Of a stretch of DNA of 64,000 nt, positions 5,214 to 54,197 are shown one piece after another. The DNA lies in NCBI GenBank assembly GCA_036505485.1, contig DASXTK010000310.1, positions 4,999 through 68,998 of the forward strand. The letters run 5' to 3'. Made by a program: the position numbers and the translations under genes. The notes below the pieces were generated by a model. That model did not search any database and was not told the origin of the DNA. It was given only the letters and a program-made list of their open reading frames with translations. The stretch's first letter is position 1. Every line of letters starts with the position of its first letter. The DNA comes from Acidimicrobiales bacterium. GTDB taxonomy: Bacteria; Actinomycetota; Acidimicrobiia; Acidimicrobiales; VFJN01.

Positions 5214-5871
5214 CGACGTCGTAGCCGCGTTCCTCCCAGTAGCCCGGGATCTCCTGGTCGACGACCTCGATCCGCTCCAGCCACTTCAGCGACTTGTAGC
5301 CGTACATCGGGGCCACGTAGAGCCGCACCGGCCCACCGTGCTCGGCCGAGACCGGACCGTCGAGCATCTCGTGGGCCGCCATCACATCGTCCCGGCGGGC
5401 CTGCTCGAGGCTGAGGCTCTCGGTGTAGCTGCCGTCGAACGAGTACAACCGCAGGTGGGTGGCCCGGTCGGAGACCACGGCCTCGTCGAGCAGGTCACGC
5501 AGCAGGACTCCCCGCCAGTGCACCTCGGGCACCCGCCAGCCGGTCACGCACTGGAAGTCCCGGATCAGCTCGGTCTGGGGCCGCTGCTTCAGGTCGGCCA
5601 GGCTGAGCTCGAGCGGCTGGTCGACCAGTCCGTCGACGGTGAGGCGGTACTCGTCGTCGCTGCGCTCGGGCATGGGAAAGACGACGGTGTAGATGCGGAA
5701 CCGGCCGGCCGTCGGCACGAACGAGCTGAGGCCGGTCGGATCGTTCTGGGTAACTGGGCGGAGGAAGCGCTCCAACCCATCCTGGATGCGCGCGCCGGTC
5801 ACGATCCCGACCGCGCCGAACCCCAGCATGCCCAACACGATGCGACGACCGACCGGAGACTGGTCCTTCAC
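5164..5871 (-). CDS. Molybdopterin-dependent oxidoreductase (sulfite-oxidase/MsrP-like fold)
   Basis: FQCVTGWRVPEVHWRGVLLRDLL and LYVAPMYGYKSLKWL. The start was moved to GTG5871 (VKDQSPVGRRIVLG, Tat-like RR), because the ORF-track N-terminus runs through palindrome A1. Confidence 0.75.
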   Translation of the reverse strand: MKDQSPVGRRIVLGMLGFGAVGIVTGARIQDGLERFLRPVTQNDPTGLSSFVPTAGRFRIYTVVFPMPERSDDEYRLTVDGLVDQPLELSLADLKQRPQTELIRDFQCVTGWRVPEVHWRGVLLRDLLDEAVVSDRATHLRLYSFDGSYTESLSLEQARRDDVMAAHEMLDGPVSAEHGGPVRLYVAPMYGYKSLKWLERIEVVDQEIPGYWEERGYDVDAFVGGSNGRQGDDPT

Positions 5872-5883
5872 TGGGTCGAGGGT

Positions 5884-5936
5884 ACGAAATTGAGGTGTTT
5901 GACGCGCTATAAGCGCGTCAAACACCTCAATTTCGT
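5884..5936. repeat. Family A palindromic intergenic repeat, copy A1 (perfect 25-bp stem, 3-nt loop)
   Basis: acgaaattgaggtgtttgacgcgct-ata-agcgcgtcaaacacctcaatttcgt, read directly. The right arm contains the TGA stop of the ArsR gene. Confidence 0.9.
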
Positions 5937-6253
5937 AATGAGTCGCGCAGGCGGGCCAGGCGGTCGTCCCAGCGGCGGCCGGTGGCGGTGGCCCAGGCGG
6001 CCAGGTCGTCGAGTGGTTGGGATTGGGCCACGAACCGGGTCTCGCGCCCGGTCCGATCGGCCTTCACCAGCCCGGCCTCGCGCAGGACGATCAGATGGCG
6101 GGCGATGGCCTGCCGGCTGATCGGCACCTCCGAGGTGAGCGCGGTCGCCGTCGTCGGGCCGTACTCCGACACCGCCTGGAGGATGTTGCGGCGGGTCGGG
6201 TCGGCCAGCGCCGCGAACACCTCATCGCCAGGATCCGCGATGGGCAAGCTCAC
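5927..6253 (-). CDS. ArsR/SmtB-family transcriptional regulator
   Basis: FAALADPTRRNILQAV...ISRQAIARHLIVLREAGLV winged helix. GTG6253 start in a GTGA overlap with the upstream SRPBCC gene. Confidence 0.8.
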   Translation of the reverse strand: MSLPIADPGDEVFAALADPTRRNILQAVSEYGPTTATALTSEVPISRQAIARHLIVLREAGLVKADRTGRETRFVAQSQPLDDLAAWATATGRRWDDRLARLRDSLRN

Positions 6254-9354: not shown

Positions 9355-10473
9355 TTGCGGCCCGAGGCCCGGGAGGCCCTGGTGGCGTGGCTCGATCCTG
9401 GAAAGGCCGGGGATCCCAGCCGCATCCATCAGGACGGCTTGGAGGCGCGGCACGCGATCGAGGTTGCTCGGGACCAGGTGGCTGGGCTGCTCGGGGCCCG
9501 CAACCGCGAGGTGTGCTTCACCAGCGGCGCCACCGAGGCCATCGTGGCCGCCTGCTGGGGCGCGGCCGAACGTGGCCGCCACCAGGTGGTCCCGGCGATC
9601 GAGCACTCGGCGGTACGGATGGCTGCCGAACGCCACGGCGACGTGAGCCTGGTGGCTCCCGACCGGCTCGGACGGATGGACCCGGACGCGGTGTTGGCCG
9701 CGGTCCGGCCCGACACCGCTGTGGTCCACCTGCAGTGGGGCAACCACGAGGTCGGCACGACCCAGCCGGTGGCCGAGGTGGCGGCAGAGTGCCGGGATCG
9801 GGGCGTGCTCGTCCACATCGACGCGGCCCAGGCTGCCGGACGGGTTCCCATCGACTTCGCCGGGCTCGGCGCCGACCTGCTGTCCATCAGCGCCCACAAG
9901 CTGGGCGGACCGGCCGGTGTCGGTGCCCTGCTGATCCGCCGGGGCCTGCGGCTGCGGCCGCTCCTGGTGGGTGGCGATCAGGAGCGGGCCCGCCGCGCCG
10001 GCTACGAGAACGTCCCCGGTCTGGTCGGTCTCGGCGCCGCCTGTGCGGCTTTGTCCGACCCGGATCGGCTGGAGGCCGAGGCTGCGACCCAGCGCCGGCT
10101 CAGCCAGCGGATCATCGACGCTGTCGCCGGCACGGACGGGCTGCAGCAGTACGGCGACCCTGAGCACCGGTTGCCGCACATCGTCTGTCTGGGGGTGGCC
10201 GGCATCGAACCCCAGGCTGTGCTCTTGGGGTTGGACCGGGCCGGAATCAGCGCCCACTCGGGGAGCGCCTGCTCGTCCGAGGCCCTGGAGCCGTCGCCGG
10301 TGCTGGAGGCCATGGGCGTCGACGCCCACCACAGCCTCCGCCTCTCCACCGGCTGGTCCTCCACCGACACCGACATCGACCGCTTCCTCGACGCCCTCCC
10401 CAAGGTCCTCATCGACCTCCGCGCCCTGACTGTGGGGTCAAGGAATGTCGATGGCATAGTGCCGGGGCCGTGA
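9355..10473 (+). CDS. Cysteine desulfurase (class V aminotransferase, NifS/IscS-like)
   Basis: PLP-Lys motif SISAHKLGGPAGVGAL. The in-frame family motif VYLDHASTSP lies upstream of the ORF-track TTG start, so the true start is probably near 9310. Confidence 0.85.
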   Translation: MRPEAREALVAWLDPGKAGDPSRIHQDGLEARHAIEVARDQVAGLLGARNREVCFTSGATEAIVAACWGAAERGRHQVVPAIEHSAVRMAAERHGDVSLVAPDRLGRMDPDAVLAAVRPDTAVVHLQWGNHEVGTTQPVAEVAAECRDRGVLVHIDAAQAAGRVPIDFAGLGADLLSISAHKLGGPAGVGALLIRRGLRLRPLLVGGDQERARRAGYENVPGLVGLGAACAALSDPDRLEAEAATQRRLSQRIIDAVAGTDGLQQYGDPEHRLPHIVCLGVAGIEPQAVLLGLDRAGISAHSGSACSSEALEPSPVLEAMGVDAHHSLRLSTGWSSTDTDIDRFLDALPKVLIDLRALTVGSRNVDGIVPGP

Positions 10474-10937
10474 AGTTGTACGTCGTCCGTCACGCCGCCG
10501 CCGGGAGTCGGAGCGCCTGGACCGGCGACGACCGGCTGCGTCCGCTGAGCAAGAAGGGCCGCCGTCAGGCCGCCGAGCTGGCGGAGCTCCTCGCCGATGC
10601 CGGGCTCGAGCGGCTCGTGTCCAGCTCGTACGTCCGCTGCATCCAGACCCTGGAGCCCCTGGCCGAACGGACCGGGTCGGAGGTCGAGATCGACGACCGG
10701 TTGGCCGAGGGCAGCGACGGGGCGGCGGCGTTGCAGCTGGCCGAGGAACTGCGGGATGCGGGCGTGCGAGCCGCGGCGCTGTGCAGCCACGGCGATGTGG
10801 TCCCGGAGCTTCTGTCGCTGCTCAAGGTGACCGGCACGGCGTTCCACCAGCCGCTGGTGTGGCCCAAGGGCTCGGTGTGGGCTCTGAACAGCAACGGCAC
10901 CCACTGGACCGACGCCGAGCTACTGACCCGCGCCTGA
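10470..10937 (+). CDS. Histidine phosphatase superfamily protein (SixA-like)
   Basis: LYVVRHAAAG...RPLSKKGRRQA...CSHGDV. GTGA overlap with the desulfurase stop. Confidence 0.75.
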   Translation: MKLYVVRHAAAGSRSAWTGDDRLRPLSKKGRRQAAELAELLADAGLERLVSSSYVRCIQTLEPLAERTGSEVEIDDRLAEGSDGAAALQLAEELRDAGVRAAALCSHGDVVPELLSLLKVTGTAFHQPLVWPKGSVWALNSNGTHWTDAELLTRA

Positions 10938-10950
10938 CGAAACGAAGGCC

Positions 10951-11044
10951 GAGGCAATGCTGCCCACCCGAGCGAGGCTGAGGCGATGGTGGCCATATAC
11001 GGCCACTATCGCCTCAGCCGCTCGATCATGGGCACCATTGCCTC
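10951..11044. repeat. Extended (~94 nt) imperfect palindrome between convergent genes
   Basis: gaggcaatgctgccca...ctgaggcgatggtggcc-atatac-ggccactatcgcctcag...tgggcaccattgcctc. The core arms share ctgaggcg/cgcctcag with family A. Confidence 0.75.
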
Positions 11045-18890: not shown

Positions 18891-19871
18891 GTGCGCAAGC
18901 TCGCCGTCGTTCTCGTATTACTCGTTTCCGTCGCCTGCTCCAGTGGTGACGACGATGGCGGACCGGGTGGCACGTCGACGCCATCGGAAGCCACCGCGGC
19001 CGAGGTGCGGGACGAGACGTTCACGATCACCGATGCCCAGGTCGGCGAGCTCACCTTCGACGCTCTGGTGGCCGGCGATCCGGACGCCGCGGCCGACGGT
19101 CGCCTGGTCCTGCTGCTGCACGGCTTCCCGGAGTCGGCCGAGTCGTACCGCGAGATGCTGCCGCCGCTGGCCGACGCCGGGTACTACGCCGTCGCTCCCT
19201 CCCAGCGGGGCTACTCGCCCGGAGCCCGACCCCCGGCAGTCGAGGACTACAACATCCTGCGGCTGGTCGAGGACGCAGTGGCCATCGCCGACGTCGCCGG
19301 CGCCGACACCTTCCACATCGTGGGCCACGACTGGGGCGGAGCCGTGGCCTGGGTGACCGCCGCCGTCCATCCCGAGGAGGTGACCAGCCTCACCGCTCTG
19401 TCGACCCCGCACCCCGACGCCATCAGCAACGCCATGTCCGACCCGGCCGGCGAGCAGTCGCAGCTGTCGGGGTACATGGAAACGTTCCGGGCGCCCGGCA
19501 GCGAGCAGGTGTTCCTGGAGGACGGCGCCGACACGTTCGTGACCGCCTTCAGCTCCGCGGGACTGCCCACCGACAAGGCCGAGGTCTACGCCGAGCTGCT
19601 GGCCACCCCCGAGGCGCTGGGCGCGGCCCTGAACTGGTACCGCGCCAACCCGCTGCCCACCGATCTGCGGATCGGGCCGACAAAAGTGCCGACCCTGTAC
19701 GTCTGGGGCACCGAAGACCTGGCCTTCGCCCGCAGCACCGCCGAAGCCACCGCGGCCCTGGTCGAGGCCCCGTACACGTTCAAGGAGCTACAGGGACGCG
19801 GCCACTGGCTCCCCGAAGAGGCCCCCGACGACCTCACTCCCCTGCTCCTCGACCACCTCGGCGGGCGGTAG
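18891..19871 (+). CDS. Secreted/lipoprotein alpha/beta hydrolase (epoxide-hydrolase-like)
   Basis: LLLHGFPESAESY, HIVGHDWGGAVAW (Asp nucleophile). GTG18891 start gives the signal VRKLAVVLVLLVSVACSS. Confidence 0.8.
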   Translation: MRKLAVVLVLLVSVACSSGDDDGGPGGTSTPSEATAAEVRDETFTITDAQVGELTFDALVAGDPDAAADGRLVLLLHGFPESAESYREMLPPLADAGYYAVAPSQRGYSPGARPPAVEDYNILRLVEDAVAIADVAGADTFHIVGHDWGGAVAWVTAAVHPEEVTSLTALSTPHPDAISNAMSDPAGEQSQLSGYMETFRAPGSEQVFLEDGADTFVTAFSSAGLPTDKAEVYAELLATPEALGAALNWYRANPLPTDLRIGPTKVPTLYVWGTEDLAFARSTAEATAALVEAPYTFKELQGRGHWLPEEAPDDLTPLLLDHLGGR

Positions 19872-19875
19872 CTCG

Positions 19876-19924
19876 GAAATTGAGGCGTTTCTCGCGCTTA
19901 TAGCGCGGCAAACGCCTCAGTTTC
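19876..19924. repeat. Family A palindromic repeat, copy A2
   Basis: gaaattgaggcgtttctcgcgc-ttata-gcgcggcaaacgcctcagtttc. Begins 5 nt after the hydrolase stop codon. Confidence 0.9.
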
Positions 19925-20000
19925 GGCGAGGTCGACCTGGGAAGCCGAAGCCGACCTGCCGACCCGGGGCCGCGGCGTTAGGCCGCGGCGGCCGGACGGG

Positions 20001-20411
20001 TCACTGGCTCAGTGCTTCCGTGTCGGACGTCCCCCCGGCGTCTGTCACCAGCCCCGCCACGGTGATCTGCTCGGCCGCGTCCATGTAGCCGTCGACCAGG
20101 GTCCGCCAGACCGGCGCCAGCTCGTCGCTGCCCTGGGGGGTGGGCACGCTGGGCGACTCCCCGTCGAGCACTCGGATCACGTCGGCCACGGTGATGGTGT
20201 CGGGTGGCCGGGCCAGCCAGTAGCCGCCCTGGCCGCCACGCTTGGAATCGACCAGGCCGGCCCGGCGCAGCTCCCCCAGCACCACCTCGAGGAACCCCAC
20301 CGACAGATGGTGGCAGCGGGCGATGGCCTCGCCCTTCATCGGCTCGTCTCGAGCATCGGCCAGGACCACGAGGGCCCGTAACCCGTAGCTGACTCGTGCG
20401 GTGATGCGCAT
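20001..20411 (-). CDS. Rrf2-family transcriptional regulator
   Basis: MRITARVSYGLRALVVLA...LSVGFLEVVLGELRRAGLVDSKRGGQGGYWLA. Confidence 0.85.
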   Translation of the reverse strand: MRITARVSYGLRALVVLADARDEPMKGEAIARCHHLSVGFLEVVLGELRRAGLVDSKRGGQGGYWLARPPDTITVADVIRVLDGESPSVPTPQGSDELAPVWRTLVDGYMDAAEQITVAGLVTDAGGTSDTEALSQ

Positions 20412-20460
20412 GCGGCGGCGGCGCCTCCGGTCTTCGTCGGTGTTGGGTCAGGTCAACAGG

Positions 20461-21318
20461 TCAAGCGGTGGCCGCGTCCACCAGGCCCCAGCGGTGGCGG
20501 ATGGAACGGTCGAGGGTGCCGAACACCGCAGAGTCGACCGCGACGCCGATGACCAGGATCACGATCATCCACGCCATCAGCCCGGCCATGTCCCGCAGGG
20601 AACGGGCGTTGGTCATGAGCGCACCGATCGACGGCTTCCCGGCGATGGTGACGAGCAGCTCCCCGGCCATGAGGCTGCGCCAGGCGAAGGCCCAGCCCTG
20701 CTTCAGCCCACCCGCGAACGAGGGCAGCGATGCCGGCAGCACGATGTGCCAGTAGGACCGGAGGCCACGGGCGCCGAGCACCCGGCCGGCCCGCAGCAGG
20801 ATCGGCGGGATCTGATCGGCCCCGGCAATGAGCCCGTTGGCGATGGCCGGCGCCGCCCCCAGCACGACCACGAAGGTGATCGCGGAGTCGGACAGCTGGA
20901 ACAGGATCACCGCGAACGGGAACCACACGATCGACGGCATGGTCTGCAGACCGGTGATCAGCGACCCGAAGGCGCTGCGCAGGAACCGCACCCGAGCCAC
21001 CAGGCTGCCGACGATGACCCCGATGACCAGCGCCACCGCGTAGCCCTTGAGGGCCCGCTCCATGGTCAGCCGCACCGCCTTCCACACGGTGCCGTTCTGA
21101 ATCTGCTCCCACAGTTCCGGGAACACCTTGCCGGGGCCGGGCAGCAGGTACTCCGGCTTCCAGTTCGACCACACGACGCACTGCCACAGGAACAGCGCCA
21201 GGGCGATGGCCGCCAGCTTGGGCCAAGTGGCGCTCCACAGCCGCCGGATCACCGGCTCGTGCTTGACGTCGATGGTCTCGAGGGCGTCGAGCCCGGCCAA
21301 CTCCTCAGCTGTGCGCAT
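20461..21318 (-). CDS. ABC transporter permease (sulfonate/nitrate/taurine NitT family)
   Basis: BPD-type permease. AGRVLGARGLRSYWHIVLPASLPSFAGGLKQGWAFAWRSL (EAA-like loop). Confidence 0.85.
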   Translation of the reverse strand: MRTAEELAGLDALETIDVKHEPVIRRLWSATWPKLAAIALALFLWQCVVWSNWKPEYLLPGPGKVFPELWEQIQNGTVWKAVRLTMERALKGYAVALVIGVIVGSLVARVRFLRSAFGSLITGLQTMPSIVWFPFAVILFQLSDSAITFVVVLGAAPAIANGLIAGADQIPPILLRAGRVLGARGLRSYWHIVLPASLPSFAGGLKQGWAFAWRSLMAGELLVTIAGKPSIGALMTNARSLRDMAGLMAWMIVILVIGVAVDSAVFGTLDRSIRHRWGLVDAATA

Positions 21319-22114
21319 GACGACGCACCTCCTCCCGCAACCGGGCGGTGACCTGGCCGGCCAGCTCGCCCACCTCGGGGGACTCGATCCGCCGGGGCCG
21401 GGCGATGTCCACGTTCAGCACCGCGGTGACCCGGCCGGGCCGGCTCGACAGCACCACGATGCGGTCAGCCAGCCGCGCCGCCTCCCGCACATTGTGGGTG
21501 ACGAACACGATGGTCAGGTCCCGGGCGGTCCACAGGCCCTCCAACTCGTCGTGGAGGATGTCCCGGGTCATGGCGTCCAGGGCGCCGAACGGTTCGTCCA
21601 TCAGCAGGACATCGGCGTCCTGGGCGAAGGCCCGAGCCAACGCCACCCGCTGACGCATGCCGCCGGACAGCTCGTGGGGCCGCTTGCGCCCGAACCCGTC
21701 CAGGTGGACGGTCTGCAGGAGGGACTCGACCCGCTCCCGTCGTTCCGCCTTGGGAACGCGCCGCAGCTTGAGCGCCAGTTCCACGTTCTTGGCCACGGTC
21801 AGCCAAGGAAACAGCGCCGCCTCTTGGAACATCAGGCCGGTACGCCCCTCGACCGAGACTTTGCCTGCAGTCGGGCTGTCCAGTCCGGCCAGGAGGTTGA
21901 GCAACGTGCTCTTGCCACAGCCGGACGCCCCCACCACACAGACCAGCTCGCTCGGCTTGACCGCCAGGTCGATCCGGTCCAGTGCCGCTACGCGGTTGCG
22001 CCCCGCGCCGTAGACCTTGGAGACCTGCTCCAGGGTCAGCGCGGGGCGGAGCTCGGACGAGGCGTCGGGGGGAGACGCCCCGTCCGAGACAACCGGTGAT
22101 GCCGGAAGGCTCAC
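21305..22114 (-). CDS. ABC transporter ATP-binding protein (SsuB/TauB-like)
   Basis: Walker A GASGCGKSTLLN, signature LSGGMRQRVALARA, Walker B VLLMDEPF. Confidence 0.9.
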   Translation of the reverse strand: MSLPASPVVSDGASPPDASSELRPALTLEQVSKVYGAGRNRVAALDRIDLAVKPSELVCVVGASGCGKSTLLNLLAGLDSPTAGKVSVEGRTGLMFQEAALFPWLTVAKNVELALKLRRVPKAERRERVESLLQTVHLDGFGRKRPHELSGGMRQRVALARAFAQDADVLLMDEPFGALDAMTRDILHDELEGLWTARDLTIVFVTHNVREAARLADRIVVLSSRPGRVTAVLNVDIARPRRIESPEVGELAGQVTARLREEVRRHAHS

Positions 22115-23256
22115 AAGCCTTCTACCTCTGCCTCACCGCGGGCCTTGAGCAGGTCGTTGAGGATGTCCAGGCTGTAGATGCCGTCGAGATCGACATCGTC
22201 CAGCAGACCTACCGCCACCGCGTCGTCCTTGGATTTGTTCAGCGACGAGGCGATCGGGTCCCAGGTGAAGGTCAGGCTCTCCCAGGCGCCCTGGATGGTC
22301 TCGTCCTTGAGGCGCTTCTGGGTCAGAGCCTCGATGCCGTCGTTGGTGGTCTTCTGGGCCGTCGCTGCATCGGCGTTGGCCTTGTCGATGGAGTCGAGCA
22401 GGCCGTCGATCAGAGCCCGCACGTTCTCGGGGTGGGCCTCCAGGTAGTCGGTGCGCACGATCAGGTGGGTGGTGACGAACTGACCGTCGGGCCACAGCTC
22501 CTTCTCGTCGACCAGCACATGGCCGCCGCCCTCGAGCACCAGGCGGGTGGCCCACGGCTCGGGCACCCAGGCCCCGTCGATCTGGCCGCCCTGGAAGGCG
22601 GTCAGGGTGTCGGCGTTCTCCTGGTTGACGATCTTGACGTCACCGCCGCCGGTCTGGTCGGTCTCGTAGCCCTTGTCCTTCAGCCAGGCCCGCAACGCCA
22701 CGTCCTGGGTGTTGCCCAACGAAGGCGAGGCCAGTGTCTTGCCCGCGAGGTCCTCGGGGCTGGTGATGGCGCTGGAGACGACCAGCGCGGCGCCGCCGGA
22801 GGTGGTGCCGGCCACGATGCGCAGGTCACCGCCGACTTCCTGGGACCGGGCGAAGCCGTTGATGGCCGGGTTGGGACCGATGAAGGTGGCGTCGATGGAG
22901 TTCGACTCCAGCGCCTCGACCGCCTCGGTCCCGGTCGGGAAGGTCTGGGGCTTGAGCTCGGCGTCACCCAGCTTGTCTTGGAAGATGCCGTCGTCGACGC
23001 CGATGATGGCCGGCGCATGGGTCACGTTGGGGAAGTAGCCCAGCCGCAGCTCGCCGCTGGGGGCCTTGGCCGTGCCCAGGTCCGCGGTCCCGGCCTCGTC
23101 ACCGCTGCTCCCGCCGCCGCCGGTCGAGGCCTTGTCGTCGTCATCGCCGCACGCCGCCGCCACCAACCCCAACACCACCAGGACACTCAGAATCGACCAG
23201 GACCAGCGTCTTCCCGCCCGTCCGGCCCGCCCGTTTAGAACAAAGTCGATTGACAT
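22111..23256 (-). CDS. ABC substrate-binding lipoprotein (NMT1/SsuA-like)
   Basis: ATG23256 start gives the signal ...VLVVLGLVAAACGDDDD. GTGA overlap with the ATPase gene. Confidence 0.8.
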   Translation of the reverse strand: MSIDFVLNGRAGRAGRRWSWSILSVLVVLGLVAAACGDDDDKASTGGGGSSGDEAGTADLGTAKAPSGELRLGYFPNVTHAPAIIGVDDGIFQDKLGDAELKPQTFPTGTEAVEALESNSIDATFIGPNPAINGFARSQEVGGDLRIVAGTTSGGAALVVSSAITSPEDLAGKTLASPSLGNTQDVALRAWLKDKGYETDQTGGGDVKIVNQENADTLTAFQGGQIDGAWVPEPWATRLVLEGGGHVLVDEKELWPDGQFVTTHLIVRTDYLEAHPENVRALIDGLLDSIDKANADAATAQKTTNDGIEALTQKRLKDETIQGAWESLTFTWDPIASSLNKSKDDAVAVGLLDDVDLDGIYSLDILNDLLKARGEAEVEGL

Positions 23257-23262
23257 AGTGGG

Positions 23263-23285
23263 TTTTCTACATCGCGGAACCGAAT
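23263..23285 (-). promoter_or_regulatory. Shared 23-nt promoter/operator motif, copy upstream of the substrate-binding-protein gene
   Basis: attcGGTTCCGCGATGTAGAAAA, then 6 nt, then ATG. 19/23 identical to the copy at 24159-24181. TAGAAA sits 7 nt from the ATG. Confidence 0.55.
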
Positions 23286-23298
23286 TTCGCAACCGACA

Positions 23299-23352
23299 CT
23301 GTTCTGTGACCTGCCTGCCGCGCCCTGGCGCGGCAGGCAGGTCACAGAACAG
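23299..23352. repeat. Family B palindromic repeat, copy B1 (24-25 bp stem)
   Basis: ctgttctgtgacctgcctgccgcg-ccctgg-cgcggcaggcaggtcacagaacag, read directly. Lies between the divergent substrate-binding-protein and iclR genes. Confidence 0.9.
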
Positions 23353-31112: not shown

Positions 31113-31581
31113 TTGGTGATCGGGGCGCCGACCGGGGTTGACGGTACCCATGGCCGGGTCAGGGGAACCTGGAGCACCCGGCCACCGGGTCCTTCACCGA
31201 CGCCTCGGTCGGCTTCCTGGGCGTGGCCCTGGCGTTCGGGCTCTCGCTGCTGGTGGCGGCCTACGCCATCGGGCCGATCTCGGGCTGCCACATCAACCCA
31301 GCGGTCACCCTCGGCATGTGGCCGGCTGGCAAGACGAAGACCGAGCAGCTCCCGACCTACCTCATCGGCCAGGTCGTCGGCGCCCTCGTCGGCGGCGGCC
31401 TGTTGTCTCCATCCCGATCGACAAGACCTCGGTGAACCCGGCCCGCAGCCTGGCCGTGGCCTTCTTCGCCGGCGGCGACGCGGTCAAGCAGCTGTGGGCC
31501 TTCATAGTCTTCCCGCTGGTCGGCGCCATCGTGGGCTGGCTCGCCCATCAGGCCCTGGCCGAGGACGGTGGTCGATATTGA
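31113..31581 (+). pseudogene. aqpZ: Decayed aquaporin Z gene (5' truncated, internal deletion, frameshift)
   Basis: Frame 1 reads GVALAFGLSLLVAAYAIGPISGCHINPAVTLG...QVVGALVGGGLL (first NPA). It continues in another frame as SIPIDKTSVNPARSLAVAFFAGG...FPLVGAIVGW (second NPA). Roughly 90 central residues and the N-terminal helix are missing. Confidence 0.75.
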
Positions 31582-31668: not shown

Positions 31669-31764
31669 GGAGGTGTCCGAGCACCTGGTGGGCTCCGCCG
31701 CCTTCAAAGCGGTTGGGACGGGCACTCCCCGTCCGGCGGGTTCGATTCCCGTCCACCTCCGCCA
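31669..31764 (+). tRNA. selC: tRNA-Sec (anticodon TCA)
   Basis: Anticodon loop cTTCAaa (TCA at 31704-31706). 13 bp of acceptor plus T stem (8/5 or 7/6). 7-bp long variable arm (ggacggg/cccgtcc). T loop ggg-TTCGATT-ccc. 3' G-CCA is encoded. Confidence 0.8.
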
Positions 31765-34529: not shown

Positions 34530-34783
34530 GCCCCAACGTTAGAACCCCCACCATCCTCCCCGAACCAGTTAGGAAACGATGGCGGGTCGATCCCGAGGGG
34601 GCTGGCATCCGGCCGTGTCCCGGTCGGGGCAACGATGGGCTCCCAGGCAGCCGGCTGAGCCGCCTGCCGGTCTCAGGGTGTTGCTGGCCGTGCCCGGGCC
34701 CTCAAGGGCACAGCTCGCCGGCCCCGATCGCTTCGCTCCGTGCCCGTCGACCTGACCCTTGACCGCCCTCGGTGGTCGTTCCC

Positions 34784-34832
34784 GAAATTGAGGCGTTTCT
34801 CGCGCTATAAGCGCGGCAAACGCCTCAGTTTC
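34784..34832. repeat. Family A palindromic repeat, copy A3
   Basis: gaaattgaggcgtttctcgcgc-tataa-gcgcggcaaacgcctcagtttc. Both arms are identical to A2. Confidence 0.9.
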
Positions 34833-34844
34833 AGGGTCCTCGCC

Positions 34845-34893
34845 GAAATTGAGTCAGAAAAGCCGCTATAGGCCGCACAACTGTCTCAGTTTC
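34845..34893. repeat. Family A repeat, degenerate copy A4 (same 49-nt length and termini, divergent core)
   Basis: gaaattgagtcagaaaagccgctataggccgcacaactgtctcagtttc, 12 nt after A3. Confidence 0.75.
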
Positions 34894-35031
34894 GGCCATC
34901 GACCGCGGTGGGCGGTCAAGGGACGGCCGAAGGCCGAGCAATGCCACGCCGAGTAGCGGCGTGGCGGCGGCCCTTGACGGCCCACCTTCTCGTTCGAGAG
35001 TGTCAGAGGGCGGAAGTAGCCTTGAGAGATT

Positions 35032-38563: not shown

Positions 38564-38613
38564 GTTCTGTGACCTCCATGCCGCGCCTGGGCGCGGCATG
38601 GAGGTCACAGAAC
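38564..38613. repeat. Family B palindromic repeat, copy B2 (23-bp stem)
   Basis: gttctgtgacctccatgccgcgc-ctgg-gcgcggcatggaggtcacagaac. Lies between the divergent mscS and permease genes. Confidence 0.9.
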
Positions 38614-52273: not shown

Positions 52274-52314
52274 GTGACCTCTGGCTCCCGGCATGGAGAG
52301 GAGCCAGAGGTCAC
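52274..52314. repeat. Family B-related palindrome B3 (14-15 bp stem), or an ars operator
   Basis: gtgacctctggctc-...-gagccagaggtcac. Shares tgtgacctc with B2. Lies 61 nt upstream of the arsR start. Confidence 0.7.
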
Positions 52315-54144: not shown

Positions 54145-54197
54145 GGACTCTTTGAACGGAAATGGTTGGCTACCAACCATTTCCGTTCAAAGAGTCC
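54145..54197. terminator. Perfect 25-bp stem / 3-nt loop hairpin between convergent genes (bidirectional terminator-like, or a repeat element)
   Basis: ggactctttgaacggaaatggttgg-cta-ccaaccatttccgttcaaagagtcc, read directly. Locally AT-rich. Confidence 0.7.

Follow-up and report, generated by a model that had tools for sequence, protein, structure and literature searches.

Which kind of element is a 49-nt palindrome that recurs between ordinary genes of an Acidimicrobiales MAG, how did it come to lie there, and what might it do at the gene boundaries that it occupies? Small repeats of palindromic sequence are well known from Proteobacteria and from a few Gram-positive bacteria; to our knowledge, descriptions are scarce for Acidimicrobiia and Chloroflexota, two abundant groups of mostly uncultured bacteria from soil and water. 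The complete stretch of contig that was analysed (64 kb; the window) contains four copies of the palindrome GAAATTGAGG...CCTCARTTTC, denoted family A, located where the initial annotation had placed them, with only the core of the first copy being refined: A1 (5883..5937, core 5886-5934, no strand assigned), A2 (19872..19930, core 19876-19924, + strand), A3 (34781..34835, core 34784-34832, + strand) and A4 (34842..34896, core 34845-34893, + strand). A covariance model, one of the checks that had been proposed, was built from 32 copies and used to scan the whole window with filters off. It recovered A1-A4 at 48-74 bits (74.4, 57.9, 64.1 and 47.8 bits, respectively) and yielded one weaker relative, GGCTGAGGCGATGGTGGCC-ATATAC-GGCCACTATCGCCTCAGCC (10971..11022, no strand assigned, 32.6 bits, E 2e-5), which has TGAGGCG/CGCCTCA in common with A2 and A3 and lacks the GAAAT ends. 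When up to 3 mismatches were allowed, the 15-mer GAAATTGAGGCGTTT matched 6 arms, compared with 0.33 expected on the basis of shuffles.

The outer arms of the palindrome, (C)GAAATTGAGGYGTTTG, are conserved over 17-19 nt; the apical stem between them is rich in GC and variable, and the loop measures 3 nt. A1 is a perfect stem of 26 bp (5883-5908 with 5912-5937) around such a loop, one pair longer than the 25 bp initially reported. The arms of A2 and A3 (22 nt) are identical down to the T.G, T.G and C.C positions (read on the + strand), exactly as described before. Their centres had also been reported to differ, and they do, yet the nature of the difference is an inverted 3-nt loop (GCGCT-TAT-AGCGC versus GCGCT-ATA-AGCGC) and not a set of point changes; a single inversion accounts for it better than three substitutions would. 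The identity of A2 and A3 ends exactly at the 49-nt borders and the flanks of A1, A2 and A3 are mutually unrelated, which upholds the earlier view that they were copied from a common master. A4 repeats A3 in tandem at a period of 61 nt, in diverged form and with a decayed centre, and the duplicated unit takes in 10 nt of upstream flank. Together, A3 and A4 are enclosed by an outer inverted repeat of 23 nt (34756-34778 with 34900-34922, 87% complementary, no strand assigned). The predicted RNA folding energies for A1/A2/A3/A4 are -45.1/-37.6/-39.2/-28.0 kcal/mol, with z-scores of -13.2/-6.8/-9.0/-5.7. The hairpins have a GC content of 44-56% in a window of 69% GC (range 65-72%). The bases that directly flank the window copies are complementary to each other (TAC/GTA, CCC/GGG, GCC/GGC) and do not form direct repeats; each copy has 3-4 of such copy-specific, mutually complementary bases.

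All copies are found at gene boundaries. A1 fills the gap between two minus-strand genes, one of the arsR type and one msrP-like: the former owes to A1 its last two codons and its TGA stop (5927-5929, minus strand), as had been recognised, and the A1 core ends one base from the -10-like TACCCT (5879-5884) of the latter, the GTG start of which is found at 5869-5871 (minus strand). A TACYCT hexamer is conserved 6-7 nt before the msrP start codon, here and in relatives, and this position suggests a leaderless msrP promoter. The core of A2 lies 4 nt past the TAG (19869-19871) of an alpha/beta hydrolase gene, beginning at the fifth base after that stop, in agreement with the earlier remark that it starts 5 nt after a stop codon. 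The hydrolase gene converges with an Rrf2 regulator gene that has its own GC-rich hairpin (19968-19995), so that A2 is positioned 3' of both. A3 and A4 are found in the spacer between the divergent genes cysS and valS, which measures 502 nt here and 29-49 nt in relatives. Within the same spacer (34530-35031), four CCCTTGAC/GTCAAGGG boxes (at 34696, 34756, 34910 and 34971) alternate in orientation, and A3 and A4 are surrounded by further inverted repeats. The weaker relative at 10971-11022 lies 34 nt past the stop of a histidine-phosphatase gene (10470-10937, + strand). Overall, 5 of the 6 Acidimicrobiales sites with a hairpin are found shortly past a stop codon, and such sites fit a terminator-like role as much as selfish spread. 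None of the window copies carries a U-tract, a scan for terminator-like structures called nothing at A1, A2 or A3/A4, and the window copies therefore lack the combination of GC-rich hairpin and U-tract that defines a canonical intrinsic terminator. Target-site duplications were not found around any window copy. The RAYT/IS200-like transposase that had been suggested as a partner was looked for too, and among the ~40 ORFs of the window (Pfam) neither a RAYT nor another transposase was detected; housekeeping genes were found.

We then considered the known families. No Rfam family was recovered for the hairpins at gathering or at permissive thresholds (the only hit was a tRNA-Sec elsewhere in the window), and the sub-threshold matches were limited to generic microRNA-precursor models. 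A full-text literature search with the arm sequence returned unrelated eukaryotic papers only, a scan of the viral sequences in IMG/VR gave no match, and distant BLAST searches against phages and plasmids gave matches at chance level only. The statement that the repeat could not be assigned to a described family thus holds for Rfam, full-text literature, phages and plasmids. CRISPR repeats, integron attC sites and abutted IS-end junctions were considered and rejected, since family A is conserved in its outer arm, does not have the right spacing and forms no arrays.

The origin of the repeat was approached by scanning one genome per species (185,579 species) for GAAATTGAGGNGTTT-N17-21-AAACNCCTCARTTTC. 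The scan yielded 11 loci, all of them in three MAGs of Chloroflexota (a Chloroflexia chromosome and two MAGs of Anaerolineaceae), and a scan of JGI metagenomes added 13 loci, all with 49-59% GC; a high-GC copy was absent from the genome and metagenome collections that were scanned. The Chloroflexota and metagenome copies are identical to A1 in 17/17 bases of the outer arms and have the same length of 49 nt. The 32 aligned copies have the ends (C)CGAAAT...ATTTCG(G). In the Chloroflexota the apical stem varies per copy and stays paired, usually around a GAA/TTC loop, and the apical stems and loops of the window (CGCGC-TATAA-GCGCG) are unlike those of all Chloroflexota copies. Approximately 35 hairpin copies were counted in 132 kb of Chloroflexota DNA, 0 of which are inside an ORF. 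With 17 tandem, 8 divergent and 6 convergent cases, their placement relative to genes is nearly random, and their neighbours are unrelated, encoding 2-oxoglutarate dehydrogenase, a LysR regulator, an FHA-domain protein, epimerases and 6-phosphogluconate dehydrogenase.

Many of the Chloroflexota copies constitute the centre of a palindromic element of ~110 nt with the ends GTAACTGCTCAGCC...GGCTGAGCAGTTAC, i.e. with 14-nt terminal inverted repeats GTAACTGCTCAGCC that begin with GTAA. For 11 distinct full elements the flanking 8-mers are identical at a mean of 5.9/8 positions, as compared to 1.8/8 in an offset control, and three elements show perfect 8-mer duplications (ACCAAATA, CATTGATT and AAATAATC). 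The element is thus a MITE with an 8-bp target duplication, and the REP/MITE-like behaviour that was proposed initially for family A is borne out by the presence of the same hairpin inside these true MITEs. The GTAACTGCTCAGCC ends were also found without the core hairpin or with another hairpin, and the hairpin was also found without these ends; since each occurs without the other, core and shell are separable modules. A recurrent transposase-like ORF was not found across the distinct loci in ~150 kb of Chloroflexota sequence, nor was a cognate autonomous IS with the same ends found in these loci or in the window. At one place, just upstream of the 2-oxoglutarate dehydrogenase gene, a GTAA-ended MITE was seen in two Chloroflexota genomes (L007 1611-1801, L024 4141-4200) whose E1 proteins are only 54% identical; of the two MITEs, one encloses another core hairpin and one lacks a core hairpin altogether, and the shared position may reflect either an old insertion or a hot spot.

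The likeness to the described classes of small repeats is only partial. Like the stem-loop MITEs (Correia, ERIC, RUP, SMAG), the ~110-nt Chloroflexota element is intergenic and foldable and has terminal inverted repeats and 8-bp duplications, whereas the window copies consist of the 49-nt core only, with neither outer repeats nor duplications. The ends and linkers of the Chloroflexota MITE left no trace in the flanks of the window copies, which score at shuffle level. The 17-19-nt outer arms of family A could by themselves serve as the terminal inverted repeats of a MITE; the target duplication of the classical MITE was seen only for the ~110-nt element. The outer inverted repeat around A3 and A4 produces a nested-palindrome layout like that of the Chloroflexota MITE, with a different sequence. 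The signature of IS66-like MITEs is a terminal repeat starting with GTAA (consensus GTAAGCG) combined with an 8-bp duplication (PMC11946415). The Chloroflexota element resembles these in its GTAA start and 8-bp duplication, but its repeat continues with CTGCTCAGCC after GTAA instead of GCG, and an IS66-type transposase was not found. REPs are imperfect palindromes of 20-40 bp with a GTAG or CGTC tag at one end that are associated with RAYT transposases and are thought to move as folded single strands (PMC3733652). Family A shares with REPs and BIMEs that it consists of short extragenic palindromes, dispersed without target duplications and often located just downstream of genes. Unlike REPs, its members measure 49 nt (≤55 nt with the extended stem) and have nearly perfect stems of 22-26 bp, the 32 aligned copies show no GTAG/CGTC tag and no RAYT was seen among the ~40 ORFs of the window.

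The closest named homologues of the CysS, MsrP-like and hydrolase proteins come from Acidimicrobiales MAGs. A model search of 94,363 bases from Acidimicrobiales with 75-81% identical orthologues recovered no copy of the TGAGG type, and neither did a search of a further 26 kb around more distant hydrolase homologues. The gene order across A1 (arsR-msrP) and across A3/A4 (cysS-valS) is kept in several of the relatives, and for that reason these two loci are not chimeric joins; at the A2 locus synteny is lacking for the closest homologues of the hydrolase (71% and 66% identity), which hence provide no empty site. The absence of TGAGG-type copies from the sampled DNA of the relatives, the long cysS-valS spacer, the unrelated flanks and the low GC content together favour a horizontal acquisition that was followed by a few local copying events.

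On balance, we lean towards reading family A as a REP/MITE-like foldback repeat that is non-autonomous, was probably gained by horizontal transfer and folds into a strong hairpin at the borders of genes. The TGAGG subfamily would most likely have been acquired by horizontal transfer, with Chloroflexota, or an element shared with Chloroflexota, as the likely source, after which a trans-acting enzyme, not encoded in the window, would have spread copies of it to a few intergenic sites. Its arms would have been kept complementary by recombination, gene conversion or template switching at the DNA level, and its loop could have been flipped by the same processes. When transcribed, the repeat is predicted to form a very stable hairpin (-38 to -45 kcal/mol) at the gene boundary, which would probably act as a 3'-end barrier or insulator and possibly as an RNase III substrate, rather than as a canonical terminator with a U-tract. 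Transposition within the present host would be part of this reading; the window copies show no target duplication and no Chloroflexota MITE ends, no transposase gene was found among the ~40 ORFs of the window, and these observations speak against the reading.

In the alignment of 32 sequences 94.7% of the cells are paired and double-sided changes affect 21 of the 26 pairs, with one-sided (G.U-type) cells numbering 13 against 96 double changes; the covariation score is 0.374, versus 0.114 for shuffles and ≤0.07 for slid controls. The changes that separate A1 from A2/A3 had been described as compensatory throughout. This is correct for T-A versus C-G, a true double change, whereas the other difference amounts to a C.C mismatch plus a T.G pair against two Watson-Crick pairs. 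Chloroflexota copies with the same arms in the same MITE frame carry either a GGA or a TCC loop, and the two states occur 6 versus 7 times. Flip-flop loops are known from the terminal repeats of parvoviruses and loop inversions from chloroplast hairpins. The likeness lies in the occurrence of both loop orientations between otherwise identical arms (A2 versus A3; the L011 copies), and the difference is that those cases concern replication termini and neutral organelle hairpins, whereas family A consists of dispersed chromosomal repeats. Since loop flip-flop is combined with very few G.U intermediates, homogenisation of the arms at the DNA level is favoured over selection on an RNA stem. From the observed loop inversions and pair counts we infer the recombination step: recombination between the arms, or template switching, would account for the flipped loops and the 'compensatory' changes and would let the palindrome grow outwards, with no need for selection on an RNA stem. 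Two side observations concern the strand of the loop. A1 and A2 read UUAUA on the sense strand, and the pyrimidine form of the loop (TTC) was on the sense strand in approximately 10 of the 12 same-strand Chloroflexota cases (L004-L016, hand count), a small sample in which the bias is confounded with the direction of replication.

The main alternative is that the hairpins are native to 3'-ends: palindromes of ~49 nt with GAAAT...ATTTC ends that act as U-tract-poor bidirectional terminators or mRNA stabilisers and resemble each other through function and occasional conversion, and not through transposition. We regard this as possible, though doubtful. It is in line with the overlap of A1 with a stop codon and with the position of A2 and the 10971-11022 relative at 4 and 34 nt after one. 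It is also in line with the other hairpins of exactly 49 nt, with the same GAAAT...ATTTC ends and different arms (TTCGGCAG..., CGGGTGGCTGG...), that are carried by the relatives: two in tandem just downstream of valS (L031 62-116 and 159-213) and one just downstream of an acyl-CoA dehydrogenase gene (L028 5449-5497; L029 3524-3572). The exact length of these hairpins and their location after stops imply that the 49-nt architecture may be native and driven by function. In L026 the acyl-CoA dehydrogenase site is occupied by an ordinary hairpin, rich in GC, that has GGAGGCCGCT, GGGGGG and TTCGCG in common with the 49-nt hairpin of L028, and these shared blocks suggest remodelling in situ. In addition, the Chloroflexota hairpin passes the scan for terminator-like structures in its MITE form, i.e. 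together with the linker CGGGTCTTTT, in one orientation. A precedent is provided by TRIT: M. tuberculosis has 147 of these conserved hairpins, which are palindromic and surround stop codons, and according to its authors TRIT is restricted to Mycobacterium (PMC3152330). Family A is comparable in that it is actinobacterial, conserved in sequence, palindromic and hence bidirectional, located at or overlapping stops and without a classical U-tract; it differs from the description of TRIT in that it occurs in Acidimicrobiales and Chloroflexota, is also found between divergent genes and can be embedded in a MITE. Among the Actinomycetota, TRIT is the closest functional counterpart of family A. What weighs against native 3'-end hairpins is that every window copy is devoid of a U-tract, that A3 and A4 are situated between divergently transcribed genes and that the Chloroflexota copies show no preference for 3'-ends. 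Moreover, function alone cannot produce 17/17 identical arm bases across two phyla, nor the identity of A2 and A3 including the C.C mismatch.

The site of A1 in the relatives provides a further clue. They carry there TTACGAAAC(G/A)G(A/G)GACATCTG, which is like the left arm of A1 in 14/20 positions (the motif CTCC-TTACGAAAC-GGAG-ACATCTG, matched to the left arm plus flank). In L033 the place of the hairpin is taken by a segment of equal length, with 47 nt between TTACG and CGTAC as in the window. The A1 site therefore looks like a case of replacement or conversion and not of simple insertion, and the equal length and the arm-like motif suggest that, instead of entering naive DNA, the hairpin may take the place of older hairpins or palindromic sites. 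When the same site was compared for a possible decayed ancestral hairpin, 11/22 arm positions were complementary in L035 (hand count) and L033 was at random level. A small stem-loop after the arsR-type gene is conserved (window 5869-5945; L033 3927-3996; L035 404-480); its stems covary (CTCC/GGAG, GTCC/GGAC and CTCA/TGAG, the last of these in the window) around the loop TTACGAAAY. The ArsR reading frame of the window has lost ~28 nt with respect to the relatives and now ends inside A1.

A variant of the mobile reading, which we consider improbable, takes the 49-nt hairpin itself as the mobile unit. It would move as a folded single strand of fixed length, recognised by its CGAAAT...ATTTCG foot, by means of a putative hairpin-specific enzyme that works in both Actinomycetota and Chloroflexota, and it would insert into, or overwrite, the centres of palindromes without a target duplication. 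Terminator hairpins and the body of the GTAA-type MITE would be examples of the pre-existing palindromes that it targets. Such movement would explain the constant length of 49 nt across subfamilies, the copy-specific complementary flanks, the nesting in other palindromes, the same-length replacement between arsR and msrP and the flip-flop loops.

It is very unlikely that the palindrome is the operator of a dimeric regulator, for instance of the neighbouring ArsR or Rrf2 type, within a sulfur/redox regulon that comprises msrPQ, a sulfonate transporter, cysteine dioxygenase and cysS. The copies do adjoin an arsR-type gene with msrPQ and an Rrf2 regulator gene with a sulfonate-type ABC transporter, they are found upstream of cysS, and A1 abuts the -10-like hexamer of msrP. 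The known operators of the ArsR- and Rrf2-type regulator families are, however, far shorter, and a site of 49 bp with a variable centre far exceeds them. Moreover, relatives with the same arsR-msrP arrangement have no hairpin, A2 is at the 3'-ends of both its neighbours, and the same sequence is found inside Chloroflexota MITEs beside unrelated genes. In view of those unrelated neighbours a gene-specific regulatory role was rejected. An assembly or binning artefact, with Chloroflexota reads or chimeric joins at a short repeat, is scarcely credible: the source is a MAG contig, the GC content of the hairpins is below that of the host and an independent contig of the same organism, from JGI, stops 158 nt before reaching A3, but the ArsR reading frame continues into A1 and the apical stems and loops of the window differ from those of all Chloroflexota copies.

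Family A, read as a foldback repeat, thus represents a small palindromic hairpin with identical arms in two phyla that is enclosed in a MITE in one and naked in the other, and it offers a concrete case in which to study spread between lineages and self-movement. It is also a case in which to ask whether 'compensatory' changes reflect selection on RNA or homogenisation at the DNA level, and calls for caution in covariation-based RNA discovery. Repeats like these break assemblies and sit exactly on gene boundaries, with one copy giving a gene its stop codon and abutting a promoter; they consequently matter for the annotation of MAGs and for our understanding of gene punctuation in U-tract-poor Actinomycetota.

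The window contains other palindromes. A second family, B, GTTCTGTGACCT..GCCGCGCC-NN-GGCGCGGC..AGGTCACAGAAC, is found at 23299-23352 and 38564-38613, both times upstream of transporter genes, and consists of two perfect stems of 24-26 bp that show double-sided differences (GCC/GGC versus CCA/TGG). A shorter hairpin at 52274-52314 has the TGTGACCT motif in common with family B. The family B copy at 23299-23352 forms one border of a block (~18900-23350) that comprises the hydrolase gene, A2, the Rrf2 regulator gene and the sulfonate-type ABC transporter, and in the relative L030 no such block lies between the genes for sortase and cysteine dioxygenase. A single perfect palindrome of 25 bp, GGACTCTTTGAACGGAAATGGTTGG-CTA-CCAACCATTTCCGTTCAAAGAGTCC, AT-rich for the host genome, is located at 54145-54197 between a small ORF and an aromatic amino-acid hydroxylase gene. 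Finally, the tRNA-Sec gene (anticodon TCA; 31669-31764) adjoins a fragment of 70 aa of an aquaporin (MIP; 31223-31435), and since the relative L027 has an intact MIP gene of 247 aa beside cysS, the MIP gene of the window looks disrupted.
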